NCBI GenBank assembly: GCA_030390025.1
Contig: CM059443.1
Span: forward strand, 50,468,001 to 50,532,000
Direction of reading: 5' to 3'
DNA length: 64,000 nucleotides
Source of the DNA: Squalus acanthias
Taxonomy: Eukaryota
Position numbers and translations under genes: made by a program. Shown piece by piece: positions 3,204 to 50,527 of this stretch (positions are counted from its first letter, which is position 1; the number at the start of each line of letters is the position of its first letter). The notes under the pieces were generated by a model. It searched no databases. It had not been told where the DNA came from and saw only the letters and a program-made list of their open reading frames with translations.

Positions 3204-6200
3204 CTAGATATCAAGAGAGGAGATCACGTTTGATGGGTTCACTTCCAGTGGGGGACAGATAATGAAAGCGGACTGTCTCGTTACATCAGATAAAGCTCCA
3301 GGAGCTTTAGAACAGACACAGTGTTGGCTGAGAGGATTATACTGAAAGATTGCAATTACTTACATTTTACTCACTGAATTTCACTTTTGCCTCCATCACT
3401 AAGAATACAGAAAATTAAACATGTGAAGCATCAGTAACATAAGATTCAAACAATAATAAACATCTGTAAATGGATTTGCTATTTTTAACCCCTGGATTTG
3501 AATCCGTCTCTCTACTCTTCAATTTTCGCTCTCACCATCTCCCATCACTCTCCCTTTCCCTCACTCGCCCTCTATCTTTCCCTCCCTCCTTTCTCTCTCT
3601 CTCTATGTCTGTCTCTCTCACTCTACCCCTCTCTCCATCCCTCCTCCTCTCTCTGGACTGTAAGGGTCATTTAGGAAATGATTTACATTCAGCTTCCTGT
3701 GTCAGCCACACATTAGCCTCCTACAGTTATTAAAGAAATGCAACTGGTAAATGTTTCATTGAATGAGAAAAACTAAACAGAAAGTCTGAATGAAAACTGA
3801 GTGAATCACATCCCTGCCACTACCGATGCTGAGGATCCTTCATAAAAATAAATAACGGGGGGAACTTACTAGATTTAATATAAGTTTTTAAAACGGTAAT
3901 GGAGAAAATAATGGGACTTAAGTTTGACAAATCTCCAGGATCTGATGGCTTCCACCCCAGGGAATTAAAAGAAGCAGGTGAGGAAATTGCAGATACTCTA
4001 GTCATGATCTTCCAAAACTCTCTTGATTCACGAATTGTCCCCTTGGATTGGAATACTGCCAAATGTTACTCCATTATTTCAGCAGGGTGGGAGAGAGAAA
4101 CCAGGAAATTATAGACCTATTCGTCCAACGTCTGTTGTGGGGAAGTTACTAGAATCTGTTACTGGGGACAGAGCAACTGAGCACTTGGACAAATATGAGT
4201 TGACCAGAGAGAGCCAGCATGGATTGGTAAAGGGTATGTCAGGTCTAACTAACCTTGTTGAATTTTATGAGGAGATCACTAACGTGGTAGATAAGGGAGT
4301 GTACATGAATTTTAGATGGACTTCCAGAAGGCATTCAATAATGTTCCACACAAGACACTCTTAGCAAAAATGAAAGCACATGGCTATTGACAAGGCTAGG
4401 GAATTGGTTAGGTGGTTGGAAGCTGAGAGTAGGGATAATGGGTAATATACTCCAATTGGCAGGATGTGACTACTAGTGTCTCCCAGAGATCTGAACTGGG
4501 GCCTCAGATTTTCACTATATTTATAAAAAAAAGACTTAGATAAAGGAATAGAGCGCCAAATATCCAAGGTTGCTGACAACACGGAGTTAGGTGCCACAGT
4601 AAGTAGTGTTGTCAAGGGACGTTGACAGATTAAGTGAGTTGGCAAAACTGGCAGATGGGGTTCAGTGTAGGGAAGTGTGAGGGGATCCACTTTGGACCGA
4701 AGAAAGATAGGTCAGAATATTTTCTAAATGGTGACAAGATAGGAACTGTGGAGGAGCCGAGAGATTTCGGGGTCCAAGTACAGAAATCACTAAAAAGCTA
4801 AAAACAGGGACAAAAAATAATTAAAAAGGCGAATAGAAAGTTAGCTTTATCTCAAGTTAGCTGGAATACAAAAGAGTAGATGTTATGCGACAGTTGTATA
4901 AAGCTTAGGTGAGACCACATCTGGAGTGCTGTATTGAGTTCTGGGCACTGCACCTCAGGAAGGACATACTGGCCTTAGAAGGGGTGATACTGGGGCTAAA
5001 AGGGTTAAATTACGAGGACAGGTTGCAGAGACTAGGCTTGTATTCCCTCGAGTATAGAAGATTAAGGGGTGATCTAATTGAGGTGTTTAAGATGATATAA
5101 GGATTTGATAGGGTGGATAGAGAGAAACTATTTCCTCTGGTGGAGGAGTCTAAAACAAGGCGGCATAACCTTAAAATTAGAGCCAGGCACTTTAGGGGTG
5201 ATGTCAGGAAGCACTTCTTCACACAAAGGGTGGTGGAAATCTGGAACTTGCTCCCCCCAAAAAGCTGTTGAGGCTGAGGGTCAATTGAAAATTTCAGAAC
5301 TGAGATTGGTAGATGTTTATCAGTTAAGGGTATGAAGGCATATGCAACCAAGGCGGGTAAATGGAGTTAGGTCACAGATCAGCAATGATCAAATTGAATG
5401 GCGGAACAGGCTCGAGGGGCTGAATGGCCTCCTCCTGTTCCTATGTCGCTATGGTCACAGTAAATGTGATAAGATCAGAACAATGAATTTAAAAATCATT
5501 GTAATAAGTCTGTACTTAAATATAATTTTCCGGATTTAGATCAAACATTTTAAAGCTCTTGCTTACCCTTGGCAGCTTGCCGTTTCCTTCGGATTATGCA
5601 AAGTGCCCCATCAATGCAAACTAGCACAACCAAGTACAGAACCAAAACACACATACGTATGTCACTGCAGCTGGTGTAAGGACCTGCAGAGGAGAAGCAA
5701 CATTAAGTTCAGCCTGTGCAATCCCGTGTTATATGTACAGCTGATCACACTGGTTACCTGGGCTGAGGAACAGACATTTCTGGTTAGAATCTGGAATAGT
5801 GCAATGGCGAAGGAAGTAAATCAAAGCAACTTCTAACGGCTACAAACTGTACAACTGATCTGGAATCTCTCAGTTTGAATTATTGATATTAAAAGATTCA
5901 CATCATATTCTAGATTGTATCACTTACTTTGAGTATTTGTACGAGTTAAGCTGCTGGTCACTGAGGAGATTCCCGATGTTGAGGTGGGGGTGTCTGAAGT
6001 CTCTGCACTCGCCTCTGTCACAGTAAGGGAGATGTTTGCTGCAATCTTCCAGACAGGTTTCCCTGAATCCTGACCGTGGACAGCACAGAGATACCTCCCA
6101 GTGTCCACCACATCTGCTGAGTGAATAGTAAGGTTGTGAGACTGGCGTCTAGCAGCAAGATTGTCTGAGCTTTGGGCAGAGATTCTTTGTGACGACTTTC

Positions 6201-9200
6201 TGTCCACACAGCAGCGTGTGTTAGAATGTGCCTCATAACCCTCAGTGTGAACAGAGTGCAGACACTTGTTGACGTTTCCAGATCTGATCCAAAACAGAGT
6301 GAAGGCGAGGTTTTTTGTATTCTCAAACTGGCAGGGTAAAGCCACATTTTCTCCCTTTGACACTGTCAGCGACCAGGAGTTTTCTTCAGTAGAAAATATT
6401 TCATCCGAATCTATAAACAACATTGAAAAGAACCTTTGTTACTAATTATTTAGAAGTGCTGTTCCCACATGTTATCCAGCTGTTTGATGTAAGTGTGAGT
6501 CTGTCTGTAACTAGCTGTATTATCAGCAGTGGAGACAGCAGGCGTGGGCCAGGGCCAAATCCTTGTTTGGAATATTTGTCTGATTTTCCCACCGTTAGAT
6601 TAAACATTCCCCAGCTAGAGGCAGATTGTGTAAGATCAGGAAACACTCGGGGACTGAGAGCAAGGAGCGAGAAGACAGGACAAATAATGAAAGATCGAAC
6701 ACACAAAGGCAAAAGACAGGGGCAGACATTAAAGGACAGAGACAAGGGGGGGAGACTTCAAACTCGCTTCTCTGTATCTCGATACCTGGGAATTTTATCC
6801 CCCCCCCCCGCCCCGCCAGATATTTCCCCAATACCTCCCCTGATATCTCCTCCGATACTTCCCCGATCCCTCCCCCGATATTGCCCCAGTACACGTACCA
6901 CTCTGGATTATCACAAAGAACAAGTCGTGGTTTTCACATCCCTCTCCTGACAGTGTGAGCCAGGACGGACACTTCGATGATCCTCTTTCTGTGGAATCCT
7001 GAGCCGAGCAGGTAAATACCGTCGAGTTAACCGTCTTCACATCGAATGTCAGAGACTGAGACTCGTTTGTTCTTCATTTAATTTGCATTTTCTACACTCT
7101 GGCTTACTCTGTTTGTCCAATTAAGACTGATGTTTTCACAAAATTGCATTTTTTTCTGTTTATTCTCACATTTTATTTTGCCCATTTCTGCTCCGAGATC
7201 AGTGAAGCTGCACAAGGTTACTTTATTCCCAGCACCAGTGGGCACGTTGCACTGCAGAGTGGTGACATCTCCTGGTCCTCGGGAGAAGAGATAAGTGGAT
7301 CCTGCAGGGAAAGGGCAGAATCGGATAGAGATAAATAACATTCCACACAGGAAAGATCATTAAACACTCAATGTGAAACAAGCCTCTCCCAGTAAATGAG
7401 CCTAGTGAGACCCCCACCACCCCCTTTACACATTGTGATAGACTGCCCTCCCATTACACAGTCTGAATCCAGTCCACACCACCCCCTCTCCCTGCCTCCA
7501 TCACACAGGCCTGGACAGAGATCCCACCCCCACCATAACACATTCTGATCGAGACCTCACCCCCATCCCCATCATAGCCTGAATAGAGACCCCCCACCCT
7601 TTCACTGAGCCTGACTACAGTCATACATAGTACATAGGTTGAGGTTATTGGAAGTCAATCATCTCAGCTCCAGGACATCGCTGCAGGAGTTCCTCAGGGC
7701 AGTGTCCAAGGCCTAACCATCTTCAGCTGCTTCATCAATGACCTTCCCTCCATCATGAGGTGACACGTGGGACTGTTCACTGATGATTGCACAGTGTTCA
7801 GCTCCATTTCCAATTCCTCAGATAATGAAGCAGTCCGTGCCTGCATGCAGCAAGACCTGGACAACATCCAGGCTTGGGCTGATAAGTGATAAGTAACAGT
7901 CACACCACATAATGACCATCTCCAACAAGAGAGAGCCTAACCACCTGCCCTTGACATTTGATGGCATTACCATCATCGACTCTCCCACCATTAACATCCC
8001 GGGGTCACCATTGACCAGAGACTTAGCTGCAGCAACCACATAAATACTGTGGATACTAGGGCAGGTCAGAGGCTGAGTACTCTGCGGCAAGTGGCTCACC
8101 TGACTCCCCAAAGCCTTTCCACCACCTATAAGGCACAAGTCAGGAGAGTGATGAAATACTCTCCACTTACGTGGATGAGTGCAGCTCCAAAAACACTCAG
8201 GAAACTCAACACCATCCAGGACAAAGCAGTCCACTTGATCGGCTCCCGATCCGTCCCCTTAAACATTCACTCCCTCCACCACTGGCGCACCATGGCTGCA
8301 GTGTGTACCATCTACATGATGTAGGGTTCTCAAAATTCCCACATTCCCCAGAGTTATTAATAAGGGGTACCCTTGACAAAGTGGCTTCTGGACCTCGTGA
8401 CAGAAGCCTGCGACATTGAACAGACAGGCTGCCAAAGGAGGCGGGGCTGGCCTCTACAGACAATGTTGTATATTCGACCTATCTCCAGCCCCATCAAACT
8501 GTTTAGCATTTATACAAAGAATTAAAGGCAACACAAATGAACAACCATCAGACCAGCAATCATCCTCCACTTAACAAATATTTAATATCGTTAAAGGCCA
8601 TCTCCTGCCATTAAATTTAACTACCTTAACAAGCCCACCAGAATTAAACAAAGAAGATTTGGCTGGCAAATAAGGAACAATCGAACAGTATAACTTTAGA
8701 CTGGAACAAGCCGGAGGCTGGAGAGACGAGTTCTACAAGCCGGGGGCTACAGAGACCTATGCTGGACCAAGCAGGAGTTCTAGACAGACAGGCTACAAGC
8801 AGGACAGCTGAAGCACAGGAGTTCTCCAGTACACAGTTCAAGAGAAACAAGACCGTTCAACAAAGAAGGCCAGCGGCTCCAGAAACAGACCGACACGCAA
8901 GAAACCAGAGCAACGGTTCCAGTGACCATCAAACACCTCGAGGCACAAGGGCCTTATGAAACTTTTTACTTCAAAGGACTTTAAACCATATCTCAACTGT
9001 CAAAGGATTCGTTTGGTGAGCATTATCCCTGGTCCTCAAGAGTCTAACTTAGCTAGTAAAGTGGGGTTGGGAGGGGTGAGGTATTGTTCTACTGTCATTT
9101 CCCTCGTTTGTACCGAAGTTAAGATGTTATGTTTCATCTCTGTTCAATAAACACTGGTTTTCCTCGCACCAATCCACGGGTCTGTTTGTTTGTCCTTATC

Positions 9201-11246
9201 GCCGCTCGATAAGTCCTGGGCTCAGAACTAATAAGGGGATAGCGATTCGCAACCGCACAACGGGCAAGGACAGTCCAGGAAAACATAACTGGCTGACCTA
9301 CAAATAAGCCCGAGACAAAAAACCCTTACAATGATAGTACCTCACCAAGGCTTTTACGGCAGTATCTCCCAAACCCCCGACCTTCACCACCTATAAGAAC
9401 AAGGGCAGCAGGTGCTTGGGAACACCATCACCTCCAAGTTTCCTTAAAAGTCGCACAACATTCTGACTTGGAAATATATTGCTGTTCCTTCATTGTCGCT
9501 GGGTCAAAATCCTAGAATTGCCTCCCTAACAGCATTGTGGAGAACCTTCACCATTTGGAGTGCAGAAGAAAGGTCAAACCCAACTGACCTTCTCAATGGC
9601 AACTAGGGATTGGGCAATAAATGCCGAATTGCCAGTGACACCCACATCCCGAAGAAAGATAAAATAAATATGAAGTAATCATCCACTTAATGAGGGAACT
9701 TAATTTAAGACGTGGCATTGAATACTGGTTCCTAACTTTCAGGGAGATTATAATAACTGATAATTGGTGTGAGGACATTAGTTAGTCCTGTAAAAGGAAA
9801 ACATCTGGGTAAATATTATCTTTTTAGTTGGGGTTTCTGTAGAAGGAGGGAATTAGCTGAAGTTGAATGGTGCAGACCAGAGAGATATTTATAATTAAAA
9901 GTATCACTTGATGGAGAGCAATTATATGTAACAAGAGCCGAATTATTTATAAGGTAATGAAGTAGAGTTATACCAATCTCGTTAGCCGAATGGAAAAAGA
10001 GCTCGTTAGTTAGGAAACCAGCTGTTAGCTAAAGTTATCGATAAGGACTCAGTTCAATTAGACTCTCCTTATATGGAGTGGTTTTTCAATGCAGAAATGT
10101 GCAAATTGTCACATAGTCGGAGTGAGGGGTAAGTACAAAAAGTGGCAGAGTGTAATCAGTATTTGGATTCGAAGGGGTTTGATTGGCCTAAAACACTGAA
10201 CATTAACGCGTTTGAGTCGCCAGCCATCAGCTCTTGTAAGTTCTTGTGGCTCTTTGCCAGAATCAACTCACGGCCTCGCTCTCCCCACAGTCCTCCTGTA
10301 TCTTTCACAGCTTCAAATGTTTATCCAATTCTCACTTAAAGATAGAATCATAGAATCATAGAAAGTTACAGCACGGAAGGAGGCCATTTCGGCCCATCAT
10401 GTCTGCACCGGCCAACAAAGAGCTATCCAGTCTAATCCCACTTCCCAGCTCTTGGTCCGTAGCCCTGCAGGTTACAGCATCCCAAGTGCACATCCAAGTA
10501 CTTTTTAAATGTGGTTAGGGTTTCTGCCTCTACCACCCTTTCAGGCAGTGAGTTCCAGACCCCCACAACCGTCTGGGTGAAGAAATTTCCCCTCAAATCC
10601 CCTCTAAACCTTCCACCAATTACTTTAAATCTGTGCCCCCTGGTTTTTGACCCCTCTGCTAAGGGAAATAGGTCCTTTTTGTCCACTTTATCTCGGCCCC
10701 TCATAATTTTATACACCTCAATAAGGTCTCCCCTCAGCCTCCTCTGTTCCAAGGAAAACAAACCCAGCCGATCCAGTCTTTCCTCATAGCTAAGATTCTC
10801 TACTCCCGGCAACATCCTTGCAAATCTCCTCTGTACCCTTTCTAGTGCAATTACATCTTTCCTGTAATGTGGTGACCAGAACTGCACCGCAGTACTCTAG
10901 CTGAGGCCTAACTAGTGTTTTATACAGTTGATAAGATCCAAAGCTCTCTACCTCAACCATTCGCTGTGGTAAAGCATTCCCTGCTCCAACAACCCTCTGT
11001 GTAAAGACATTTCTCCTAACCTCTCTCCTCACTGTCTTAGTGCCATTTTTAAACTGATGACCCATGATTAAACCGTGTTAAAATGCCACAGCAAGGACTG
11101 TGATGCGAGCACATTAAACATATTCACAAGAACACCACTGTTTTATATCCTTATCCTATGCTGAAGATTAACTGAAAGTATTAATCCTTACCTGTAACAT
11201 GTTGGAACAGAAGGAAAAGACCCACAAACACAGCACCGAGCGCCAT
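3109..11246 (-). CDS. Receptor gene A: Ig-superfamily type I membrane receptor, activating-type (265 aa if the frameshifted D1 exon is skipped; possibly a pseudogene)
   Basis: Exons 11246-11192, [7301-6899 frameshifted], 6410-5928, 5683-5567, 3837-3824, 3720-3687, 3203-3109 have canonical GT-AG junctions. Without D1 they total 798 nt in one open frame: signal, V-type Ig, S/T stalk, TM, Tyr-free tail. Confidence 0.75.
3687..3720 (-). CDS. Gene A exon 6: 34-nt micro-exon (EANVWLTQEAE)
   Basis: Acceptor ttctttaataactgtAG, donor T|GTAAAT; homologous to gene B AGDVQLTQVAE. Confidence 0.6.
3824..3837 (-). CDS. Gene A exon 5: 14-nt micro-exon (GSSAS)
   Basis: Homologous to the 22-nt gene B exon; acceptor tttttatgaAG, donor G|GTAGTG. 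Read-through would instead end GSSASVVAGM* at 3806. Confidence 0.55.
3853..5453 (+). mobile_element. Degenerate CR1 LINE in gene A intron 4
   Basis: Fragmented RT ORFs (KSPGSDG, NYRPI, LRGDLIEV) and a 3' UTR; absent from the short equivalent intron of gene B. Confidence 0.85.
5567..5683 (-). CDS. Gene A exon 4: transmembrane exon SPYTSCSDIRMCVLVLYLVVLVCIDGALCIIRRKRQAAK
   Basis: Acceptor tctcctctgcAG, donor G|GTAAGC; 117 nt, phase 1-1; hydrophobic stretch followed by RRKR stop-transfer. Confidence 0.85.
5928..6410 (-). CDS. Gene A exon 3: V-type Ig domain (D2) plus Ser/Thr-rich stalk
   Basis: GENVALPC...LFW...HNLTIHSADVVDTGRYLC V-set motifs; acceptor tttatAG, donor A|GTAAGT; 483 nt, phase 1-1. 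Confidence 0.9.
6899..7301 (-). pseudogene. Gene A exon 2: frameshifted Cys-rich Ig-like D1 exon
   Basis: Acceptor ccctttccctgcAG and donor G|GTACGT intact. It is 403 nt versus 405 nt in gene B (+3, -4, -1 indels), with a premature TAA at 7080-7078. Confidence 0.8.
7640..9660 (+). mobile_element. Old CR1/L2-group LINE RT remnant split by a solo LTR (uninterrupted copy ~33700-34700)
   Basis: GVPQGSV, QQDLDNIQAWADK, IQDKAVHLIG remnants. Confidence 0.75.
8320..9330 (+). mobile_element. Solo LTR, 1011 bp
   Basis: TG...CA ends with a short imperfect inverted repeat (TGTAGGG / CCCTTACA), 4-bp TSD ATGA (8316-8319, 9331-9334), internal AATAAA near 9146; empty site at ~34378 in the duplicate. Confidence 0.85.
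10342..10930 (-). mobile_element. 5'-truncated CR1 (duplicate ~35390-35970)
   Basis: ORF2 C-terminus (QFWSPHYRKD...TRGH) and a (CATAGAAT)n tail. Confidence 0.9.
11192..11246 (-). CDS. Gene A exon 1: signal peptide MALGAVFVGLFLLFQHVT
   Basis: gaaATGG start, hydrophobic 18-aa leader, phase-1 donor CAG|GTAAGG; conserved in gene B. Confidence 0.85.
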
Positions 11247-11366
11247 TTCACATTCCTAGCTCGTTCTTTGCTCTTCAGAAGCTGGGTGGCTGTTTCACCA
11301 TCACATTCTGATCTGTGAGAGAAAAAGAGAAGTATAACTTTTGATGATGGTGGAAGAGAAAAGCAG

Positions 11367-22255: not shown

Positions 22256-22506
22256 TCAGGGTTCCTCCATTTTAGCATAAATAGGATTTTCTTCCATTTT
22301 TAACGGGCCAGGTCGTGGATCATCTTCCTCCAGCTGGGACTGTGTCACCGCGTCTACCGGGCAGCCTATCAAAGAATAAATCTGCTCATTGGACAAAGCA
22401 ACGGGATCCTCCTTACTGTCCTCTTTGGGCTGTGATTGGCCGTCTGGTTTGAGTTCAGTCGCTGAAGAGGTTTCAACCTGCCGTCCATGGTCCGTGTGGT
22501 CTCTGC
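22256..22506 (-). CDS. Gene B terminal exon with EQIYSLI and EENPIYAKM motifs
   Basis: 251 nt, phase-1 acceptor, open to TGA; conserved in copy C with 3 aa changes. Confidence 0.8.
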
Positions 22507-25500
22507 CTAGATATTAAGAGAGGAGATCACGTTTGATGGGTTCACTTCCAGTGGGGGACAGATAATGAAAGCGGACTGTCTCATTACTTGAGATAAAGGT
22601 CCAGGAGCTTTAGAACAGACACAGTGTTGACTGAGAGGATTATACTGAAAGATTGCAACGACTTACATTTTACTCCCTGGTTTTCAGTTTTGCCTCCATC
22701 ACGAGGAAAACAGAAAATTAAACATGTGACTAATGAGTAACATAAGATTCAAACAATATTAAATCGTTGTAAGTGGAGACTAGGTGAGGTCACTTTCTCC
22801 CCAGAGCCTGGATTTCAGTCCAGCCCAGACTGAAATTCTCTCATTAATTTTCTCTCTCTCTGTCTATCTCCCTCTGACTGTCTCTGATTGTCTCTCCGAC
22901 TCTCTTTCTCTCTTTCTCTTTCTTTGTCTCTCTCTCTCACTGCCTCTCTCTGCCTGTCTCTCTCTCTGTCTGTCTATCTCACTGTCTCTCTCGCTGTCTC
23001 TGTCTCTCTCCATTCTCTCTGTCTCTCTGTCTGTGTCTTTTCCCTGTCTCTATGTCTGTCTCTCTTCCTGTCTCCCTGTCTCTCTCTGTCTGTCTATCTC
23101 ACTTCTCTTTCGCTGTCTCCCTGTCTCTCTTCATCTCTCTGCCTCTTTGTGTCTGTCATTCCCTCCCTGTCTCGATGTCTGTCTCACTATGTCTCTGTCC
23201 CTGATCCTCTGTCCCTGTCTCTCTCTCTCTCTCTGTGTCACTCTCTGTCTGCGNNNNNNNNNNNNNNNNNNNNNNNNNNNNNNNNNNNNNNNNNNNNNNN
23301 NNNNNNNNNNNNNNNNNNNNNNNNNNNNNNNNNNNNNNNNNNNNNNNNNNNNNNNNNNNNNNNNNNNNNNNNNNNNNNNNNNNNNNNNNNNNNNNNNNNN
23401 NNNNNNNNNNNNNNNNNNNNNNNNNNNNNNNNTGTGTGAGCAGTCCTCTCTGCAATGAGTTTTCACAGTTCCAATCCAGTTCCTTGCCTAAAACTGCGCA
23501 TCATTCAGTAAAATATTTGGACTAAATTGATCATTATGGTCAGATAAGCCAAATATTGCCCTGAGAAAGTTTAATAAAAATAACTTCACACGGGCACAGT
23601 GAAAGGAGCTATTCTGATGTTGGGATAAAGGAGCACTATCAGGTCAGAGGTCAGAGTGCTTTACACGGCCTCTAGCCATTCTATACCTGACTTAGAACTG
23701 TTCGGCTGTGAGATTGGCTGCACAGCCTGGAAATGTTTTATGCTGGGTGGTGGAATAGATTAGTACAGCCCTTTAATATTTTAGGATCTGCCAAGTCCAG
23801 ATTACTAGGAATAAAAGTCCTCTTTCTATATCTCCCTGGTCTCTATCTCTGTCTGTCTCTGTCGCAGTCTCTGTCTGTCTCTGTCTCTTTGTCTTTTTCT
23901 GTCTCTTTCTCTCTAAGGGTCCTTGATGAAATGAATTTGGTCATCTCGATCCAGTTTGTAGTTCGTGTGAGCCACAGTACAAAACTACCCCTAAGTTGGC
24001 ACTTTCACTCAAACAGGCCATGAAGTGTGAGAAATGAAATGTCCGAGCTCCCTCCTTAGTTTGGAGTTGAGGAGCATTGTTGGGACAGTCCAGAGGGAGC
24101 TTTATGCTGCACCTAATCTGGAGTGCTCCAAATGTGACTGTGTGGCCACAGTGGAAAAGTAACCCATTTGCCAGCATGGGCTCCCCTCACCTTCATTACA
24201 GTAACAATCTCCGAACCCTCCATCCCAAAACAAACCCGTGGTCAGTGTTGAACGTTGCCGGGGCCGACAGCTGTCACTCTGCTTACCCTTTGACCATTGA
24301 CTCTTCGATCATAGAATCATAGAAGATAGGAGCAGGAGTAGGCCATTCGGCCCCTCTTAGCCTGCTCCGCCATTCAATGCGATCATGGCTGATCATCCAA
24401 ATTCAGTACCCTGTCCCTGCTTTCTCCCCATATCCCTTGATCCCTTTAGCCTTAAGAAATATATCCAACTCCTTCTTGAATCTATTTAATGAATTGGCCT
24501 CTACTGCCTTCTGTGGCAGAGAATTCCACAGGTTCACCACTCTCTGGGTGAAGAAATTCCTCCTCATTTCTGTCCTAAATGGCTTACCTCTTATCCTTAG
24601 ACTGTGACCCCTGGTTCTGGACTCCCCGACCATCGGGAACATCCTTCCTGCATCTAGTTTATCCTGTCCTGTCAGAATTTTATAAGTTTCAATGAGATCC
24701 CCTCTCATTCTTCTAAACTCCAGCGAGTATAGAAACATAGAAACATAGAAAATAGGTACAGGAGTAGACCATTCGGTCCTTCGAGCCTGCACCGCCATTC
24801 AATGCGTTCATGGCTGAACATGCTACCTCAGTACCCCATTCCTGCTTTCTCGCCATACCCCTTGATCCCCCTAGTTGTGAGTGTTATATCTAACTCCCTT
24901 TTGAATATATTTAGCGAACTGGCCTCAACAACCTTCTGTGGAAGAGAATTCCATAGATTCACCACTCTCTGGGTGAAGAAGTTCCTCCTCAGCTCAGTCC
25001 TAAATGGCTTCCCCTTAATCCTTAGACTGTGACCCCTGGTTCTAGTTTTCCCTACCATTGGGAACATTCTGCCCGCATCTAATTTGTCTAAACCAGTCAG
25101 GATTTTAAATGTCTCTATAAGATCCCCCCTCATTCTTCTGAACTCCAGAGGATACAAGTTCAGTTGACCCAATCTTTCTTGATATGTCAGTCCGGCCATC
25201 CCAGGAATCAATCTAGTGAACCTTCGCTGCACTCCCTCAATAGCAAGAATGTCCTTCCTTAAGTTAGGAGACCAAAACTGCGCACAATACTCCAGGTGTG
25301 GCCTCACCAAGGCCCTGTACAACTGTAGTATCACCTCCCTACTCCTGTACTCAAATCCCCTTGCTATGAAGGCCATCATTCCGTTTGCTTTCTTGACTGC
25401 CTGCTGCACTTGCATTCCCACCTTCAGTGACTGATGTACCATGACGCCCAGGTCTCGTTGCTCGTCCCCTTTCCCTAATCTGCCACCATTCAGGTAATAG

Positions 25501-28500: not shown

Positions 28501-31500
28501 GTGCCTTAACTTTACACGCTAATCTCTTATGCGGGACCTTATCAAAAGCCTTTTGGAAGTCCAAATACACCACATCCACTGGTTCTCCCTTATCTATTTT
28601 ACCAGTTACATCCTCAAAAAATTCCAGTCGATTAGTCAAGCATGATTTACCTTTTGTAAATCCATGTTGACTTTGTCCGATCCTGTCACTGTTTTCCAAG
28701 TGCTCAGCTATTACATCTTTTACATCTTTTATAATGGACTCTAGCATTTTCCCCACTACCGATGTCTGTAATTCCCTGTTTTCTCTCTACCACCCTTTTT
28801 GAATAGTGGGGTAACATTAGCTTCCCACCAATCCATGGGTACTGTGCCAGATTCCATCGAATGTTTGAAGATGATCAGCAATGCATCTACTATTTCTAGG
28901 GCCACTTCCTTAAGTACCCTAGGATGTAGATTATCAGGCCCTGGGGATTTATCGGCCTTCAATCCCTTCAATTTCCCTAACACCATTTCCCTACAAATAC
29001 TGATTTCTTTCAGTTCCTCCCTTTCATCAGACCCTATGTTCCCCAACATCTCTGGGAGGTTATCTGTGTCCTCCTTTGTGAAGACAGAACCAAAATATGC
29101 ATTTAATTGGTCTTACATTTCTTTGTTCCCCATTATAAGTTCCCCTGATTCTGACTGCAAGGGACCTACGCTTGACTTCACCAATCTTTTTCTCTTCACA
29201 TATCTATAAAAGCTTTTACAGTCAGTTTTTATGTTCCCTGCAAGCTTACTCTCATATTCTATTTTCCCCTTCTTAATTAATCCCTTTGTCCTCCTTTGTT
29301 GAATCTTAAACTGCTCCCAATCCTCAGGGTTACTGCTTTTTCTGGCCAATTTATATGCCCTCTCCTTGGATCTTATCCTATCCCTAATTTCCCTTGTTAG
29401 CCACTGTTGAGTCACCCTTTTTGTTTTATTCTTATGCCAAACTGGGATGAACAAATTCTGTAGTTCGTCCATGCGGTCTTTGAATGTTTGCCATTGCCTA
29501 TCCACCGTCAACCCTTTGAGTGACATTCCCCAATCAATCCTACCCAACTCGCACCTCATACCACCGTAGTTTCCTTTATTTAAATTCAGGACCCTAGTCT
29601 CTGAGTCAACTACTTCACTCTCCATCCTAATGAAGAATTCTATCATATTATGATCGCTCTGACCCAAGGGGCCTCGCACAACAAGATTGCTAATTAATCC
29701 TTTCTCATTGCATAATACCCAGTCTAAGATGGCCTGATCTCTGGTTGGTTCCTCGACATATTGTTCCAGGAAACCATCCCGTAAACACTCCAGGAATTCC
29801 TCCTCCATAGTATTGTTACTAATTTGGTTAGCCCAATCTATATGTAGATTAAAGTCACCCATGATGACTGCTGTGCCCTTATTGCACGCTTCTCTAATTT
29901 CCCTTTTAATGCCATCCCCAACCTCCGCATTACTGTTTGGAGGTCTTTTTATCACTCCCACTAACGTTTTCTGCCCCTTGTTATTTCTCAGTTCAACCCA
30001 TACAGATTCCACATCATCAGAGCTAATATCCTTCCTTTCAATTGTGTTAATCCCCTCTTTAACCAACAATGCTACCCCACCTCCCTTTCCTTTTTGCCTA
30101 TCTTTCCTGAATATTGAGTACCCTGGATGTTGAGTTCCCAGCCTTGGCCACCATGGAGCCGTGTTTCGGTAATCCCAATCAAATCATATTCGTTTACCTC
30201 TATTTGCGCAGCTAATTCATCCACCTTGTTCCGAATGCTCCTTGCATTAAGACACAAAGCCTTCAGGCTTGTTTTTTTAACGCTCTTAGACCTATTAGAA
30301 TTAGTATTTACTGTGGCCATGTTTGATTTAAACCATTGTTTTCTCTGACTGCCACTTTTGTTTTTCTCCTTCCTATCTTTTGCTTTTATCCTTGTTTCCC
30401 TTTCCTCTGTCTCCCTGCTCAGGTTACCAACCCCCTGCCATTTTAGTTTAAACCCTCTCCCAGAGCACGAGCAAACACTCCCCCTAGGACATCGGTCCCG
30501 GCCCTGCCCAGGTGTAGACCGTCCGGTTTGTACTGGTCCCACCTCCCCCAGAACCGGTTCCAATGCCCCAGGAATTTGAATCCCTCCCCCTTGCACCATT
30601 CCTCTAGCCACGTATTCATGTGAAATATCCTTCTATTTCTACTCTGACTAGCACGTGGCACTGGTAGCAATCCTGAGATTACTACCTTTGAGTTCCTATT
30701 TTTTAATTTACCTCCTAACTCCCTATATTCTGCTTTTAGGACCTCATCCCGTTTTTTACCTATATTGTTGGTACCTATATGCACCACGACAACTGGCTGT
30801 TCACCCTCCCCTTCCAAAATGCTCTGTAGCCGCTCTGTGACATCCTTGACCCTTGCACCAGGGAGGCAACATACCATCCTGGAGTCTCGTTTGCGGCCGC
30901 AGAAACGCCTATCTATTCCCCTTACAATAGAATCCCCTATCACTATAGCTCTCCCACTCTTTTTCCTCCCATCCTGTGCAGCAGAACCACCAACGGTGCT
31001 AGGAAGTTGGCTGCTGCTGTCTTCCCCTGATAAGCCATCTCCCTCAACAATATCCAAAGCGGTATATCTGTTTGAGAGGGGGATGGCCACAGGGGACCCC
31101 TGCACTACCTGCCTGCACCTATTACTCTGCCTGGTGGTCACCCATTCCCTTCCAAACAGTACACATGCTCTGTAGAGTCAGGCTTTGGGCCAGTGCTCTC
31201 CATTCCTTCACCAGGCCTTGGCTGGCTCGATGGCATTGGAACTCTCGTCACCGAGTACGCAACATGCTCGTTGTCATCGCTCTGATCCCTTCTGGGAACC
31301 ACAGAGTACGGGAAACCTAGACAGAAGGACGAGTAGACGATGTGTGCTTTTAGTTTCAACTCTCAAAGGGACAGGCTCGGAAGAGCTGGGCAGTAATTCT
31401 AGTCACTTACATTCAGCCACCTGTGTCAGCTGCACATCACCAGCCCTACAGTTAGCAAAGAAAAGCAACCTGTAAATGTCCCATTAAATGAGGAAAACTA

Positions 31501-34500
31501 TGCAGAAAGTCTGCCCGAAAACTGAACGAATCCCATCCCTACCTGGGTCCTGGTGCTGAGGATCCTTCACAACACATACCATAAGATTGGAAAGATAAAT
31601 TTAAAAATCTTTGTAAGGAGTCTGCACTTACAATTTTCTAGATTTAGAGCAAACATTTTAAAGCACTTGCTTACCTTTGGCAGATAGTCGTTTCCTTCGG
31701 ATTATGCAAAGTACCCCAACAATGCAAATGATCACAACCGCACACGCTATCGCTACTTTCACAGGTGTGGCAGTGACTGGACCTGCAGAGGAGAAGCAAC
31801 ATTAAGTTCAGTCTGTGCAATCCCGTGTTATATGTACAGCTGATCACACTGGTTACCTGGGCTGAGGAACAGACATTTCTGGTTAGAATCTGGAATAGTG
31901 CAATGGCGGAGGAAGTAAATCAAAGCAACTTATAACGGCTACAAACTGTACGACTGATCTGGAATCTCTCTGTTTGAATTATTGATATTAAAAGATTCAC
32001 ATCATATTCTAGATTGCATCACTTACTTTGAGTATTTGTACGAGTTAAGCTGCTGGTCACTGAGGAGATTCCAGATGTTGAGGTGGGGGTGTCTGAAGTC
32101 TCTGCACTCGCCTCTGTCACAGTAAGGGAGATGTTTGCTGCAATCTTCCAGACAGGTTTCCCTGAATCCTGACTGTGGACAGCACAGAGATTCCTCCCAG
32201 TGTCCACCACATCCGCTGAGTGAATAGTAAGGTTGTGAGACTGGTGTCTAGCAGCAAGATTGTCTGAGCTTTGGTTAGAGATTCTTCGTGACGACTTTCT
32301 ATCCACACAGCAGCGTGTGTTAGAATGTGCCTTATAATTCTCAATGCGGACAGAGTGCAGACACTTGTTGATGTTTCCAGATCTGATCCAAAACAGAGTG
32401 AAGACGAGGTTTTTTGTATTCTCAAACTGGCAGGGTAAAGTCACATTCACTCCCTTTGACACTGTCAGCGACCAGGAGTTTTCTTCAGTAGAAAATATTT
32501 CATCCGAATCTATAAACAACATTGACAAGAACCTTTGTTACTAATTATTTAGAAGTGCTGTTCCCACATGTTATCCAGCTGTTTGATGTAAGTGTGAGTC
32601 TGTCTGTAACTAGCTGTATTATCAGCAGTGGAGACAGCAGGCGTGGGCCAGGGCCAAATCCTTGTTTGGAATATTTGTCTGATTTTCCCACCGTTAGATT
32701 AAACATTCCCCAGCTAGAGGCAGATTGTGTAAGATCAGGAAACACTCGGGGACTGAGAGCAAGGAGTGATAAGACAGGACAAATAATGAAAGATCGAACA
32801 CACAAAGGCAAAAGACAGGGTCAGACATTAAAGGACAGAGACAAGGGGGGGAGACTTCAAACTCGCTTCTCTGTATCTCGATACCTGGGCATTTTATCCC
32901 CCCCCCCCCCCCGCAGATACTTCCCCGATCCCTCCCCCGATATTGCCCCAGTACACGTACCACTCTGGATTATCACAAAGAACAAGTCGTGGTTTTCACA
33001 TCCCTCTCCTGACAATGTGAGCCAGGACGGACACTTCGATGATCCTCTTTCTGTGGAATCCTGAGCCGAGCAGGTAAATACCGTCAAGTTAATCGTCTTC
33101 ACATCGAATGTCAGAGACTGAGACTCCGTTTGTTCTTCATTTAATTTGCATTTTCTGCACTCTGGCTTACTCTGCCTGTTTGTCCAATTAAGACTGATAT
33201 TTTCACAAAATTGCATTTCCTTCTCTTTATTCTGACATGTATTGTCAATTTCTGCTCCGAGATCAGTGAAGCTGCACAAGGTGACTTCATCCCCAGCACC
33301 AGTGGGCACGTTGCACTGCAGAGTGGTGACATCTCCTGGTCCTCGGGAGAAGAGATAAGTGGATCCTGCAGGGAAAGGGCAGAATCGGATAGAGATAAAT
33401 AACATTCTACACAGGAAAGATCATTAAACACTCAATATGACACAAGCATCTCACAGTAAATGAGCCTAGATAGACCCCCACCACCCCCTTTACACATTGT
33501 GATAGACTGCCCTCCCATTACACAGTCTGAATCCACTCCACACCACCCCCTCTCCCTGCCTCCATCACACAGGCCTGGACAGAGATCCCACCCCCACCAT
33601 AACACATTCTGATCGAGACCTCACCCCATCCCCATCATAGCCTGAATAGAGACCCCCCACCCTTTCACTGAGCCTGACTACAGTCATACATAGTACATAG
33701 GTTGAGGTTATTGGAAGTCAATCATCTCAGCTCCAGGTCATCGCTCCATGAGTTCATCAGGGCAGTGTCCAAGGCCCAACCATCTTCAGCTGCTTCATCA
33801 ATGACCTTCCCTCCATCATGAGGTGACACGTGGGACTGTTCACTGATGATTGCACAGTGTTCAGCTCCATTTCCAATTCCTCAGATAATGAAGCAGTCCG
33901 TGCCTGCATGCAGCAAGACCTGGACAACATCCAGGCTTGGGCTGATAAGTGATAAGTAACAGTCACACCACATAATGACCATCTCCAACAAGAGAGAGCC
34001 TAACCACCTGCCCTTGACATTTGATGGCATTACCATCATCGACTCTCCCACCATTAACATCCCGGAGTCAACATTGACCAGAGACTTAGCTGCAGCAACC
34101 ACATAAATACTGTGGATACTAGGGCAGGTCAGAGGCTGGGTACTCTGCGGCAACTGGCTCACCGGCTCCCCAAAACCTTTCCACCACCTATAAGGCACAT
34201 GTCAGGAGAGTGATGAAATACTCTCCACTTACGTGGATGAGTGCAGCTCCAAAAACACTCAGGAAACTCAACACCATCCAGGACAAAGCAGTCCACTTGA
34301 TCGGCTCCCTATCCGTCCCCTTAAACATTCACTCCCTCCACCACTGGCTCACCATGGCTGCAGTGCGTACCATCTACATGATAGTACCTCACCAAGGCTT
34401 TTACGGCAGTATCTCCCAAACCCCTGACCTTCACCACCTATAAGAACAAGGGCAGCAGGTGCTTGGGAACACCATCACCTCCAAGTTTCCTTAAAAGTCG

Positions 34501-36278
34501 CACAACATTCTGACTTGGAAATATATTGCTGTTCCTTCATTGTCGCTGGGTCAAAATCCTAGAATTGCCTACCTAACAGCATTGTGGAGCACCTTCACCA
34601 TTTGGAGTGCAGAAGAAAGGCCAAACCCAACTGACCTTCTCAATGGCAACTAGGGATTGGGCAATAAATGCCGGAATTGCCAGTGACACCCACATCCCGA
34701 AGAAAGATCAAATAAATATGAAGTAATCATCCACTTAATGAGGGAACTTAATTTAAGACGTGGCATTGAATACTGGTTCCTAACTTTCAGGGAGATTATA
34801 ATAACTGATAATTGGTGTGAGGACATTAGTTAGTCCTGTAAAAGGAAAACTTCTGGGTAAATATTATCTTTTTAGTTGGGGTTTCTGTAGAAGGAGGGAA
34901 TTAGCTGAAGTTGAATGGTGCAGACCAGAGAGATATTTATAATTAAAAGTATCACTTGATGGAGAGCAATTATATGTAACAAGAGCCGAATTATTTATAA
35001 GGTAATGAAGTAGAGTTATACCAATCTCGTTAGCCGAATGGAAAAAGAGCTCGTTATTTAGGAAACCAGCAGTTAGGTAAAGTTATCGATAAGAACTCAG
35101 TTCAATTAGACTCTCCTTATATGGAGTTGTTTTTCAATGCAGAAATGTGCAAATTGTCACATAGTCGGAGTGAGGGGTAAGTACAAAAAGTGGCAGAGTG
35201 TAATCAGTATTTGGATTCGAAGGGGTTTGATTGGCCTAAAACACTGAACATTAACGCGTTTGAGTCGCCAGCCATCAGCTCTTGTAAGTTCTTGTGGCTC
35301 TTTGCCAGAATCAACTCACGGCCTCGCTCTCCCCACAGTGCTCCTGTCTCTTTCACAACTTCAAATGTTTATCCAATTCTCACTTAAATGATAGAATCAT
35401 AGAATCATAGAAAGTTACTGCACGGAAGCAGGCCATTTCGGCCCATCGTGTCTGCGCCGGCCAACAAAGAGCTATCCAGCCTAATCCCACTTCCCAGCTC
35501 TTGGTCCGTAGCCCTGCAGGTTACAGCATCCCAAGTGCACATCCAAGTACTTTTTAAATGTGGTTAGGGTTTCTGCCTCTACCACCCTTTCAGGCAGTGA
35601 GTTCCAGACCCCCACAACCGTCTGGGTGAAGAAATTCCCATCAAATCCCCTCTAAACCTTCCACCAATTACTTCAAATCTGTGCCTCCTGGTTTTTGACC
35701 CCTCTGCTAAGGGAAATAGGTCCTTTTTGTCCACTTTATCTCGGCCCCTCATCATTTTATACACCTCAATAAGGTCTCCCCTCAGCCTCCTCTGTTCCAA
35801 GGAAAACAAACCCAGCCGATCCAGTCTTTCCTCATAGCTAAGATTCTCTACTCCCGGCAACATCCTTGCAAATCTCCTCTGTACCCTTTCTAGTGCAATT
35901 ATATCTTTCCTGTAATGTGGTGACCAGAACTGCACGCAGTACTCTAGCTGAGGCCTAACTAGTGTTTTATACAGTTGATAAGATCCAAAGCTCTCTGCCT
36001 CAACCATTCGCTGTGGTAAAGCATTCTCTGCTCCAACAACATTTCTCCTAACCTCTCTCCTCACTGTCTTAGTGCCATTTTTAAACTGATGACCCATGAT
36101 TAAACCGTGTTAAAATGCCACAGCAAGGACTGTGATGCGAGCACATTAAACATATTCACAAGAACACCACTGTTTTATATCCTTATCCTAAGCTGAAGAT
36201 TAACTGAAAGTATTAATCCTTACCTGTAACATGTTGGAACAGAAGGAAAAGACCCACAAACAAAGCACCGAGCGCCAT
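22256..36278 (-). CDS. Receptor gene B: two-Ig type I membrane receptor with Tyr-motif tail (452 aa skipping exon 7, or 428 aa ending in exon 7)
   Basis: Exons 36278-36224, 33365-32961, 32509-32027, 31782-31675, 31564-31543, 31445-31411, then 31316-31138 or 22506-22256; canonical GT-AG junctions, all in frame. Confidence 0.8.
22850..23253. repeat. CT/CTGT-rich degenerate microsatellite running into an N gap (duplicate 48100-48560; shorter tract 3510-3655)
   Basis: Direct observation; gaps at 23254-23432 and 48329-48512. Confidence 0.9.
24287..24308 (-). pseudogene. Probable displaced 3' remnant of gene B exon 7 with donor G|GTAAGC (copy C equivalent 58787-58808)
   Basis: Directly abuts the 3' tail of the CR1 whose 5' end interrupts exon 7; GAAG occurs on both flanks. 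Confidence 0.5.
24732..27793 (-). mobile_element. Nested 5'-truncated CR1 with an uninterrupted ORF2
   Basis: (AGAAACAT)n tail; empty site at ~59237 in the duplicate. Confidence 0.92.
24828..27764 (-). CDS. CR1 ORF2, APE endonuclease and reverse transcriptase, 978 aa
   Basis: Single open frame with LNARS, TETW, GDFN, SDH, PQGSVLGP and FADD. Confidence 0.92.
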   Translation of the reverse strand: MQSETNVRRVRNNRGRPSKQRQETQRAILNHKSKRTKDVNKTSLKALCLNARSIRNKVDELTVQIDVNGYDVIGITETWLQNNQGWELNIQGYSTFRKDRIKGKGGGVALLVKEEINAIARKDISLEDVESIWVELQNTKGQKTLVGVVYRPPNSSSEVGEGMKQEIRGACKKGTAVIMGDFNMHIDWATQTGSNTVEEDFLECLRDGFLNQYVEEPTRGEAILDWVLCNEEGLISNLVVRGPLGKSDHSMVEFYIRMEKETVKSETMVQNLNKGNFEGMRRELARLNWQAIFKGLSVEGQWQTFRDRMDELQQLYIPVWHKNKKGKVAQPWLTREIRDNIKTKEVAYKLARSSSKPGDWENFKTQQRRTKGLIRAGKIKYERKLAENIKMDCKSFYKYVKRKRLVKTNVGPLQSETGEVVMGNKEMADQLNKYFGSVFTVEDTHNLPEIKGVRGSGKREELREILISREKVLGKLMGLKAEKSPGPDGLHPRVLKEVALEIVDALTIIFQHSLDSGSVPMEWRVANVTSLFKKGGREKAGNYRPVSLTSVVGKMMEAIIKDVITDHLESGDMIGPSQHGFVKGKSCLTNLLEFFEDVSNRVDRGEPVDVVYLDFQKAFDKVPHKRLVSKVKAHGIGGNVLTWIENWLAHRKQRVGVNGYFSEWQAVTSGVPQGSVLGPQLFTLYINDLDEGIKCNISKFADDTKLGGSVNNEEDARRLQSDLDRLGEWANVWQMKYNVDKCEVIHFGGKNREADYYLNGGRLGKGDEQRDLGVMVHQSLKVGMQVQQAVKKANGMMAFIARGFEYRSREVILQLYRALVRPHLEYCAQFWSPNLRKDILAIEGVQRRFTRLIPGMAGLTYQERLGQLNLYPLEFRRMRGDLIETFKILTGLDKLDAGRMFPMVGKTRTRGHSLRIKGKPFRTELRRNFFTQRVVNLWNSLPQKVVEASSLNIFKRELDITLTTRGIKGYGEKAGMGY
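31138..31316 (-). CDS. Gene B exon 7 (5' part): Tyr-rich cytoplasmic exon CFPYSVV...VAYSVT...HVYCLE, running into a CR1 that supplies the stop codon
   Basis: Acceptor tccttctgtctAG follows exon 6 after a 94-nt intron, is in frame and encodes three Tyr; CR1 ORF1 sequence begins near 31148. Confidence 0.7.
31411..31445 (-). CDS. Gene B exon 6: 35-nt micro-exon (AGDVQLTQVAE)
   Basis: ttttctttgctaactgtAG acceptor, T|GTAAGT donor. Confidence 0.7.
31543..31564 (-). CDS. Gene B exon 5: 22-nt micro-exon (GSSAPGPR)
   Basis: gaAG acceptor, CAG|GTAGGG donor; required to put exon 6 in an open frame. Confidence 0.65.
31675..31782 (-). CDS. Gene B exon 4: transmembrane exon SPVTATPVKVAIACAVVIICIVGVLCIIRRKRLSAK
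   Basis: 108 nt, phase 1-1, ctgcAG and G|GTAAGC; uncharged 19-aa core. Confidence 0.85.
32027..32509 (-). CDS. Gene B exon 3: V-type Ig domain D2 plus Ser/Thr stalk
   Basis: 483 nt, phase 1-1; 13 aa differences from gene A; DTGRNLC replaces DTGRYLC. Confidence 0.9.
32961..33365 (-). CDS. Gene B exon 2: atypical Cys-rich Ig-like domain D1
   Basis: Open 405-nt phase 1-1 exon; GDVTTLQC (B strand), SLTFDVKTINLTVFTC (E-F strands), DLFFVIIQS (G strand); 9 Cys. Confidence 0.75.
36224..36278 (-). CDS. Gene B exon 1: signal peptide MALGALFVGLFLLFQHVT
   Basis: 55 nt, phase-1 donor CAG|GTAAGG. Confidence 0.85.
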
Positions 36279-47505: not shown

Positions 47506-47756
47506 TCAGGTTTCCTCCATTTTAGCATAAATAGGATTTTCTTCCATTTTTAACGGGCCAGGTCGTGGATCATCTTCCTCCAGCTGGGACTGTGTCACCG
47601 CGTCTTCCGGGCAGCCTATCAAAGAATAAATCTGCTCATTGGACAAAGCAACGGGATCCTCCTTACTGTCCTCTTTGGGCTGTGATTGGCCGTCTGGTTT
47701 GAGTTCTGTCGCTGACAAGGTTTCAACCTGCCGTCCATGGTCCGTGTGGTCTCTGC
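47506..47756 (-). CDS. Receptor gene C terminal exon (B-like tail); upstream exons not seen in the window
   Basis: Near-identical to 22256-22506, open frame, same acceptor. Confidence 0.7.
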
Positions 47757-50527
47757 CTAGATATTAAGAGAGGAGATCACGTTTGATGGGTTCACTTCCA
47801 GTGGGGGACAGATATTGAAAGCAGACTGTCTCATTACTTGAGATAAAGGTCCAGGAGCTTTAGAACAGACACAGTGTTGACTGAAAGGATTATACTGAAA
47901 GATTGCAACGACTTACATTTAACTCCCTGGTTTTCAGTTTTGCCTCCATCACGAGGAAAACAGAAAATTAAACATGTGACTAATGAGTAACATAAGATTC
48001 AAACAATATTAAACCGTTGTAAGTGGAGACTAGGTGAGGTCACTTTCTTCCCAGGGCCTGGATTTCAGTCCAGCTCAGACTGAAATTCTCTCATTCATTT
48101 TCTCTCTCTCTGTCTATCTCCCTTTGACTCTCTGATTGTCTCTCCGACTCTCTTTCTCTCTTTATCTTTCTTTGTCTCTCTCTCTCGCTGTCTCTCTCTG
48201 CCTGTCTCTCTCTCTGTCTGTCTATCTCACTGTCTCTCTCGCTGTCTCCCTGTCTCTCTCCATTCTATCTGCCTCTGTCTCAGTCTCTTTGTGTCTGTCA
48301 TTCCCTCCCTGTCTCTATGTCTGTCTCANNNNNNNNNNNNNNNNNNNNNNNNNNNNNNNNNNNNNNNNNNNNNNNNNNNNNNNNNNNNNNNNNNNNNNNN
48401 NNNNNNNNNNNNNNNNNNNNNNNNNNNNNNNNNNNNNNNNNNNNNNNNNNNNNNNNNNNNNNNNNNNNNNNNNNNNNNNNNNNNNNNNNNNNNNNNNNNN
48501 NNNNNNNNNNNNTTGTTTCCCTCTCTCTCTCTCTTTGTCTCTCTCACTGTCTTTGCTGTGTGAGCAGTCCTCTCTGCAATGAGTTTTCACAGTTCCAATC
48601 CAGTTCCTTGCCTAAAACTGCGCATCATTCAGTAAAATATTTGGACTAAATTGAGCATTATGGTCAGATAAGCCAAATATTGTCCTGAGAAAGTTTAATA
48701 AAAATCACTTCGCACGGGCACAGTGAAAGGAGCTATTCTGATGTTGGGATAAAGGAGCACTATCAGGTCAGAGGTCAGAGTGCTTTACACGGCCTCTAGC
48801 CATTCTATACCTGACTTGGAAATGTTCGGTTGTGAGATTGGCTGCACAGCCTGGAAATAAGAACATAAGAACATAAGAAATAGGAGCAGGAGTAGGCCAA
48901 TCGGCCCTTCGAGCCTGCTCCGCCATTCAATAAGATCATGGCTGATCTGATCCTCACCTCAAATCTAAAGAACACAAGAAGTAGGAGCAGGACCCGGCCA
49001 CTCAGCCCCTGGGCCCGCTACGCCACCCACAGGGCCCCGACCGATCCGAACTCAGCCTCATGTCCAATTTCCTGCCCGCTCCCCGTAACCCCTAATTCCC
49101 TTTACTTCTAGGAAACTGTCTATTTCTGTTTTAAATTTATTTAATGATGTAGCTTCCACAGCTTCCTGGGGCAGCAAATTCCACAGACCCACTACCCTCT
49201 GAGTGAAGAAGTTTCTCCTCATCTCAGTTTTGAAAGAGCAGCCCCTTATTCTAAGATTATGCCCCCTAGTTCTAGTTTCACCCATCCTTGGGAACATCCT
49301 TACCGCATCCACCCGATCAAGCCCCTTCACAATCTTATATGTTTCAATAAGATCGCCTCTCACTCTTCTGAACTCCAATGAGTAGAGTCCCAATCTACTC
49401 AACCTCTCCTCATATGTCCACCCCCTCATCCCGGGGATTAACCGAGTGAACCTTCTTTGTACTGCCTCGAGAGCAAGTATGTCTTTTCTGAAGTATGGAC
49501 ACCAAAACTGTATGCAGTATTCCAGATGCGGTCTCACCAATACCTTATATAACTGCAGCAATACCTCCCTGTTTTTATAATCTATCCCCCTAGCAATAAA
49601 AGCCAACATTCCGTTGGCCTTCTTGATCACCTGCTGCACCTGCATATTAACTTTTTGATTTTCTTGCACTAGGACCCCCAGATCCCTTTGTACTGCAGTA
49701 CTTTCCAGTTTCTCGCCATTAAGATAATAACTTGCTCTCTGATTTTTCCTGCCAAAGTGCATAACCTCACATTTTCCAATATTGTATTGCATCTGCCAAA
49801 TCTCCGCCCACTCACCCAGCTTGTCTATATCCCCTTGTAGGTTTTTTATGTCCTCCTCACTTTCTACTTTCCCTCCCATCTTTGTATCATCTGGAAACTT
49901 TGATATGTTACACTCGGTCCCCTCCTCCAAATCGTTAATATAGATTGTAAAGAGTTGGGGACCCAGCACCGACCCCTGCGGAACACCACTGGCTACTGGT
50001 TGCCAGTCCGAGAATGAACCATTTATCCCAACTCTCTGCTTCCTGTTAGATAACCAATCCTCCACCCATGCCAGAATATTATCCCCAATCCAGTGATTTT
50101 TTATCTTGAGCAATAATCTTTTATGTGGCACCTTGTCGAATGCCTTCTGGAAGTCTAAATACACTACGTCCACTGGTTCCCCTTTATCCACCCTGTACGT
50201 TATGTCCTCAAAGAACTCAAGCAAATTTGTCAGACATGACTTCCCCTTCATAAAGCCATGCTGACTTTGTCCTATTAAATTATGTTTATCTAAATGTTCC
50301 GTTACTGTCTCCTTAATAATAGACTCCAAAATTTTACCCACCACAGATGTTAGACTAACTGGTCTATAATTTCCAGCCTTCTGCCTACTACCCTTTTTAA
50401 ATAAGGGTGTTACATTAGCAGTTTTCCAATCTGCCGGGACCTTTGCTGAGTCCAGGGAATTTTGGAAAATTATTACCAAAGCATCCACAATCCCTACTGC
50501 CACTTCCCTCAAGACCCTAGGATGTAA

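Follow-up and report, generated by a model that had tools for sequence, protein, structure and literature searches.

Organisation of the locus

The window, i.e. the whole stretch of 64,000 nucleotides from contig CM059443.1 of Squalus acanthias (assembly GCA_030390025.1, positions 50,468,001 to 50,532,000), carries exons of three related genes on its minus strand, designated A, B and C. In an unnamed pair of two-domain immunoglobulin (Ig)-type receptors from sharks, gene A is the member with the short tail. Its leader exon (11192..11246), whose letters recur as the loose end of spliced read contigs, is followed by an exon for a Cys-rich first domain (6899..7301), predicted to be all-beta from the fold of the Pristiophorus protein P0006 and, at 403 nt, frameshifted as assembled. 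The third exon (5928..6410), supported by spliced joints, encodes a V-set Ig domain (Pfam V-set, E 2.4e-8) and a Ser/Thr stalk; the transmembrane (TM) exon (5567..5683) and a tail exon (3367..3398) complete the gene. The latter, found in the loose ends of contigs from runs X7 and X6, adds ten residues without Tyr before the stop. It is read in the same frame as in P0006, P0008 and P0013, and corresponds to a tail exon of the long form that is read in a different frame; no match to the Tyr-rich exon preceding this counterpart in gene B was found in gene A.

Gene B lies 25 kb upstream of A. Its leader exon (36224..36278) is followed by an open first-domain exon (32961..33365) and an exon for the V-set domain and stalk (32027..32509), both 96% identical to those of A, and by a TM exon of the long-tailed class with an uncharged core (31675..31782). 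The first three tail exons (31153..31564) end with one that has three Tyr and is cut by a LINE, its remainder continuing from 24309; the last tail exons, with YxxI and NPIY, occupy 22256..22700, the first of them behind a CG acceptor. The role of an ‘inhibitory partner’ of A is putative for gene B, as its tail holds five Tyr motifs, including YxxV/I and NPIY, none of which equals the canonical ITIM [ILVS]xYxx[LV], of which the long form of the whale shark (P0042) has one match. Further upstream, the tail exons of a third, long-tailed gene C were found at 47506..47950. As the last tail exons of B are 98% identical to those of C, B would appear to carry an A-type head on a C-type tail, as an unequal crossing-over near the TM acceptor would give.

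A tandem duplication relates 9331-23062 to 34378-48327, with 96-97% identity and a spacing of 25 kb, its unit comprising the tail of one gene and the head of the next. The LINE cluster that splits the Tyr-rich tail exon of gene B runs from 31152 to 24310 on the minus strand (LINE sequence was also noted at 58809), and read-through of the split exon would meet a stop five codons into the LINE. The same exon remainder lies beside a LINE in gene C, and the insertion therefore predates the B/C duplication. The acceptor of the next tail exon (about 22702 and 47952, minus strand) is CG in B and C and AG in A. In the V domain of gene B (32028-32507, minus strand), the YxC motif has Asn in place of a Tyr that is invariant elsewhere (Y106N). 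The V exons of A and B are separated by 13 nonsynonymous and four synonymous codon differences, four of them in residues 54-59.

Reading frame and expression of gene A

Spliced contigs from runs X7 and X6, which belong to two studies, join the first domain to the V domain, the V domain to the TM exon, and the TM exon to position 3398; within the TM exon they differ from gene A at one and at no position, respectively. None of the runs is recorded as RNA, and their status as such was deduced from the splicing at predicted sites. An optional stalk exon of 33 nt, used by a paralogous X6 contig, has probably left a remnant at 5762-5730 on the minus strand, which is skipped in A-type contigs.

As assembled, the first-domain exon of gene A runs through a frameshift into a stop at 7080. 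An extra base at 7063 was present at full depth in six of the seven runs (X1 and X3 being one sample, and contigs dropping rare variants), and the seventh, X5, had no bridging piece among the pieces listed. Indels at 7107-7108 among these pieces were of -2 or +4, both fitting open frames. The first-domain contig from X7 is A-like, with two other letters, and in frame; the frameshifted version of the window was in none of the read contigs listed. An assembly error is the simpler reading of the frameshift. Between the V exon expressed in X7 and that of gene A, 11 of 380 letters differ, so that another copy, rather than gene A itself, may supply the expressed short form. A pseudogene or null allele at this position, with the functional short-tailed receptor encoded by another copy, is a minority possibility of some weight and is compatible with any mechanism discussed below. 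It would accommodate the 403-nt exon with its stop, the LINE at a tail exon and the CG acceptor in the neighbours B and C, and the divergence of the expressed V exon, but has against it the extra base in six of seven runs, the open-frame indels and the in-frame contig. Skipping of the phase-1/1 first-domain exon would also preserve the frame, although no such joint was seen in the contigs.

The transmembrane exon

The TM exon of gene A (minus strand, 5683-5567) is 117 nt long, has an AG acceptor and a GT donor, and is of phase 1/1. The sequence-only reading had proposed a TM segment at 5567..5683 with YTSCSDIRMC at its outer edge and an Asp seven residues before RRKR; the interval proved to be exactly one exon with the translation claimed, and the Arg and the Asp are both in place. 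The Arg (5655..5657) is located at the outer end of the predicted helix, where the helix of the P0006 model begins. Relative to it, a juxtamembrane Cys is found at R-4 (5667..5669), a mid-membrane Tyr, replaced by Cys in long-tailed forms, at R+7 (5634..5636), and the Asp (codon GAT, 5610..5612), replaced by Val in long-tailed forms, at R+15 in the lower half of the helix. The translation also holds the basic stop-transfer cluster RRKR (5580..5591). The Cys and the Tyr, invariant in the short-tailed class, were not remarked on in the sequence-only reading.

In gene B, the codon at the position of the Asp is GTT (Val). Nucleotide identity between A and B is 96-99% from the leader through the intron preceding the TM exon (97.5% in that intron), 58% in the 5' part of the exon, 85% over its last 60 nt and 80-91% downstream of it, so that the earlier description of a 5' half that is not alignable with B and a 3' half that is was fair. 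A frameshift origin of the Arg motif was considered, as the other frame is superficially B-like, and rejected, since the frame with the Arg is both conserved and spliced.

The AlphaFold model of P0006, a short-tailed protein 84% identical to gene A over the TM exon, was built from 55 sequences and predicts a helix at 321-354 with the Arg as residue 322 (mean pLDDT 80); an earlier model from 18 sequences had been poor, with a pLDDT of 47. With ideal helix geometry, the Tyr would lie 20 and the Asp 60 degrees from the Arg. A homodimer prediction with two copies of the exon peptide and no alignment scored 0.02 (mark 0.32), which counts neither for nor against dimerisation.

Searches with the TM exon gave no meaningful match in Pfam and no related chain in the PDB at E<=10, and a homologue search with the TM and tail region alone returned only the query (1/1 candidate). 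The pattern YTx5R[MLI], picked post hoc, occurred in 875 of 200,000 composition-preserving shuffles of 58 residues; conservation in other sharks is the stronger evidence for the putative TM motif.

Short- and long-tailed receptors in sharks

The V exon of gene A retrieved 20 proteins among 338 longer candidates and one among 26 of similar length, every one of them a shark protein without a functional name; further members came from cluster look-ups. ‘Uncharacterized’ homologues in RefSeq and UniRef, among them Mustelus LOC144480428/LOC144480561, Hemiscyllium LOC132834819/LOC132834692 and Carcharodon LOC121272098/LOC121271932, are 61-77% identical over the V exon, fall into the same two TM classes and bear automatic names only. 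Assignment by the tail only gave eight short-tailed (S) and 16 long-tailed (L) rows, the three L rows from Pristiophorus possibly representing fewer than three genes; P0002, P0010 and P0017, which have no TM anchor, and redundant isoforms were left out.

The comparison shows two TM classes, each tied to its own type of tail. The site of the Asp is polar in all eight S rows (Asp in six, Asn in Mustelus, His in Hemiscyllium) and Val in all 16 L rows. Arg at -15 from this site is found in 7/8 S and 0/16 L, and Tyr eight residues before it in 8/8 S and 0/16 L; the Cys at R-4 is shared by 8/8 S. The exception for Arg is the Carcharodon S gene (P0039), where a two-residue deletion removes it while Tyr and Asp are kept; the models of this gene and of Hemiscyllium P0021 have no leader. 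Close to the outer edge of the membrane, 12/16 L forms also have a Lys or an Arg, and 10 of 32 columns are invariant among seven S rows, apolar ones included. Conservation in short-tailed paralogues, which had been offered as a check on the Arg and the Asp, was thus found for both residues. The caveat that the Asp is a single GTT>GAT change from B has been removed, and a recent point origin of the Asp is ruled out by a site that is polar in every S row and Val in every L row.

In Heptranchias, the model of the short-tailed P0001 has its two-domain unit tandemly duplicated and carries the automatic name ‘serine-rich adhesin for platelets-like’.

Evolutionary history of the two classes

In a tree of V domains (20 rows), the sister of every one of the eight S genes was an L gene from the same species, with support of 81-99, and monophyly of S was rejected (p-AU 1e-68); an earlier tree with 16 rows gave the same picture. 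The tree of the TM region, unrooted and made from 32 columns with those of Arg and Asp masked, placed all eight S rows on one side of a branch with an SH-aLRT of 100. As V domains group by species and TM segments by class, the ectodomains appear to have been repeatedly homogenised within species. The S helix is probably one old innovation, present in squalomorph and galeomorph sharks alike. An old helix under homogenised ectodomains would explain why the 5' half of the TM exon is unalignable between A and B, and, for the same reason, the Asp would not be one recent substitution away from B. A probable single origin of the S class also means that the class counts given above represent one evolutionary event.

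Extent and fold of the receptor family

Among 1.84 billion representatives, 85 were hit by a profile search. Sixteen of the 20 hits that were looked up (within P0044-P0101) belong to sturgeon, gar, piranha, lungfish, amphibians, reptiles and echidna, all of them unnamed. Of 56 representatives presumed to come from outside sharks, 40 had a clear helix, with Asp or Glu inside it in no case and Arg at its edge in four; each represents a 50% cluster, in which short forms from outside sharks can be hidden.

The first domain had no Pfam match and is predicted to be a seven-stranded beta domain. The V-type fold matched D1 of CAR (Z 14.6, rmsd 2.2, 113 residues aligned). Fold and Atlas searches, which mainly addressed the V domain and barely the first domain alone, found generic V-set neighbours (CAR, PD-1, TCR V, CD226-like, CD7-like and CD83-like) and no name for the family. 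A literature search, with most subscription papers outside its reach, found no description of the shark receptor family, and the available parts of PMC6795676 and PMC12227049 contain nothing on it.

Comparison with known coupling motifs and receptor families

The motif NxxR defines the helices of FcR-gamma-coupled leukocyte receptor complex (LRC) receptors and of Xenopus XFL (PMC2413239), and classical Fc receptors have (M/L)Fxx(D/N)TxL (PMC2413239, PMC4536121). Further features of NxxR helices are a DYT at the N-terminal end and acidic residues at the C-terminal end, and such helices are common to families with unrelated ectodomains (PMC6557307). CD89 binds the gamma dimer via an Arg close to the upper end of its helix, and the partners of DAP12 use a central Lys (PMC13107469, PMC8102735); CD16A has FxxDT and no basic TM residue, and NKG2D uses an Arg with DAP10 (PMC13107469). 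In CD300C, whose ectodomain is gene-converted with that of CD300A, an acidic TM residue drives signalling through FcR-gamma (PMC12447643).

The sequence-only reading had recognised in the TM exon of gene A an FcR-gamma-type Arg motif and a CD16-like Asp, and each has stood in part. The Arg is located at the outer end of the helix in 7/8 S genes, and no S gene has the Asn of NxxR; that Ser takes its place, as had been conceded, holds more widely, R-3 being Ser in six and Thr in one of the seven Arg-bearing S rows. The R-2 residue is variable in S genes (D in three, N in two, one S, one K); the ‘Asp at -2’ printed in PMC6557307 fits gene A and conflicts with the NxxR of the same paper. YT is found in 4/8 S, always after Pro rather than Asp, and PYT also occurs in the long-tailed Heptranchias P0005. 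As for the second motif, Asp or Asn is present in the lower half of the helix in 7/8 S, whereas the Phe and Thr of FxxDT are absent from all eight: Ile, Val or Ser stands at -3 (Phe 0/8) and Gly at +1 (Thr 0/8). A central Lys of the DAP12 type was found in the hydrophobic core of none of the eight S rows. On these residues, the TM exon belongs to neither the NxxR nor the FxxDT class, although it may work like them, and convergence most likely accounts for its likeness to the motifs of LRC receptors and CD16.

With the NxxR helices of LILRA2, PIR-A, NKp46, GPVI, OSCAR, CD89 and XFL TM1, the shark S helix shares an Arg at its outer end, often a YT seven residues before that Arg, and a lower acidic residue. 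A short Tyr-less tail and the pairing with an uncharged long-tailed form are likewise common to both. The S helix differs from them in the Ser/Thr at R-3, the invariant Cys at R-4 and the Tyr at R+7. In XFL TM1, helix and tail share one exon (PMC2413239), whereas the S tail has its own exon, spliced to at 3398; the LRC (LILR/KIR-like) ectodomain consists of C2 domains only (PMC4016189), in contrast to the V-set membrane-proximal domain of the shark receptors. An Asp in the lower half of the helix, or in a single shark an Asn, is what the S genes share with CD16A, CD64 and Fc-epsilon-RI-alpha, but CD16A has no basic TM residue (PMC13107469), and Arg is present in 7/8 S genes. In CD300A/CD300C (PMC12447643) and in the shark pair alike, the short-tailed member has an acidic TM residue and ectodomains are homogenised within lineages. 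Unlike CD300C, the S receptors have two extracellular domains and carry Arg, Tyr and Cys in addition, and profile and fold searches with the shark V domain gave generic V-set matches only, leaving membership of the CD300 family unsupported. The layout of activating paired receptors is present in the shark genes: the ectodomains of A and B are 96% identical and lie on two linked genes, and a polar helix with a short tail, seen in 8/8 S, occurs in 0/16 of the Tyr-tailed L forms with their neutral helix.

Proposed mechanism and alternatives

From these comparisons we propose, with a probability of about 0.55, that the TM exon anchors a short-tailed receptor that would be activating through an ITAM dimer of the CD3-zeta/FcR-gamma type. 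Such a dimer is the likeliest mechanism, ahead of another membrane partner and then of an adaptor-free decoy. The short-tailed receptor with its polar helix would share its ectodomain with a long-tailed, Tyr-bearing partner and would assemble in the membrane with the zeta/gamma-type dimer, leading to activation. As in CD89, the outer-end Arg would meet the Asp pair of the adaptor, and the Tyr and Asp would add polar contacts lower down, which may be why one shark has retained these two although its Arg is lost. Through recombination or gene conversion that stops at the acceptor of the TM exon, both receptors would stay tuned to the same ligand.

Several observations speak against the adaptor dimer. 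The S helix has neither NxxR nor FxxDT, and the Arg is missing in P0039; with outer-edge Lys or Arg in 12/16 L, it could be an ordinary interface residue. The S counts amount to one evolutionary event, and the invariant S columns include apolar ones. A 2014 survey reported no FcR-gamma homologue in sharks (PMC4016189), whereas CD3-zeta/cd247 is expressed in sharks (PMC10768021, PMC11372145). Moreover, gene A is frameshifted as assembled.

It is unlikely, but deserves consideration, that the short form signals with a different membrane partner and is not coupled to zeta/gamma: a DAP10- or DAP12-type chain, a subunit whose basic residue meets the Asp, or the long-tailed twin. The polar site of the Asp and the Tyr (8/8 each) are better kept than the Arg (7/8), known zeta/gamma motifs are absent from the S helix, and NKG2D sets a precedent for an Arg used with DAP10 (PMC13107469); yet the helix has no central Lys, and an outer-end Arg fits the geometry of zeta/gamma. 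Less probable still is a short form without any adaptor, a decoy or modulator competing for the ligand of the long form, in which Cys, Tyr and Asp would serve disulfide-linked dimerisation or quality control in the endoplasmic reticulum and the Arg would be an interface residue. An invariant extracellular Cys one turn above the Arg, the outer-edge basic residues of 12/16 L and the loss of the Arg in Carcharodon are consistent with this, but a decoy has no obvious need for a buried Asp kept across six genera, and a short tail, polar residues in the membrane and a homogenised ectodomain together are the established signature of activating paired receptors (PMC2413239, PMC12447643).

An imported or ancestral NxxR module of LRC type in the 5' half of the exon, homologous to LILRA, GPVI and Xenopus XFL, would account for Y-T and R-M in the same register in three of the seven Arg-bearing S genes and for the lower acidic residue and N-terminal DYT listed for NxxR helices (PMC6557307), but is improbable given the missing Asn at R-3, the PYT of a long-tailed gene, an exon 3' half 85% identical to the family's own long-form exon, a tail on a separate exon, unlike XFL TM1, and no PDB chain matching the exon at E<=10.

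Within the preferred reading, that of a zeta/gamma-type ITAM dimer, a more far-reaching version can be formulated, which we regard as speculative and rather improbable in its entirety. The S helix would be a double anchor that evolved once in sharks, independently of LRC and Fc receptors, and grips the zeta/gamma dimer at both known sites, the Arg facing the Asp pair at the top and the Tyr and Asp facing the lower polar face; it may do so as a disulfide-linked dimer. This helix would have been kept on a continually homogenised ectodomain in both main shark lineages, within an unnamed vertebrate-wide family. If true, this would constitute a third mode of assembly for ITAM adaptors, and the helix might use CD3-zeta itself, should sharks lack FcR-gamma.

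The activating innate-type receptors of cartilaginous fish have been thinly described so far. With an Arg and a low-lying Asp conserved in a short-tailed receptor, one can ask directly which of the ITAM adaptors is used in sharks, and whether a single helix can unite both known modes of zeta/gamma binding; the family itself spans sharks to echidna and has no name. The paired-receptor design with gene-converted ectodomains is already well known; the S helix is a variant on it, and the surprise is limited to that extent.

Other features of the window

Two long open LINE ORF2-like frames were identified, at 52297-55143 on the plus strand (949 codons) and at 27815-24831 on the minus strand (995 codons), with many decayed copies around them.
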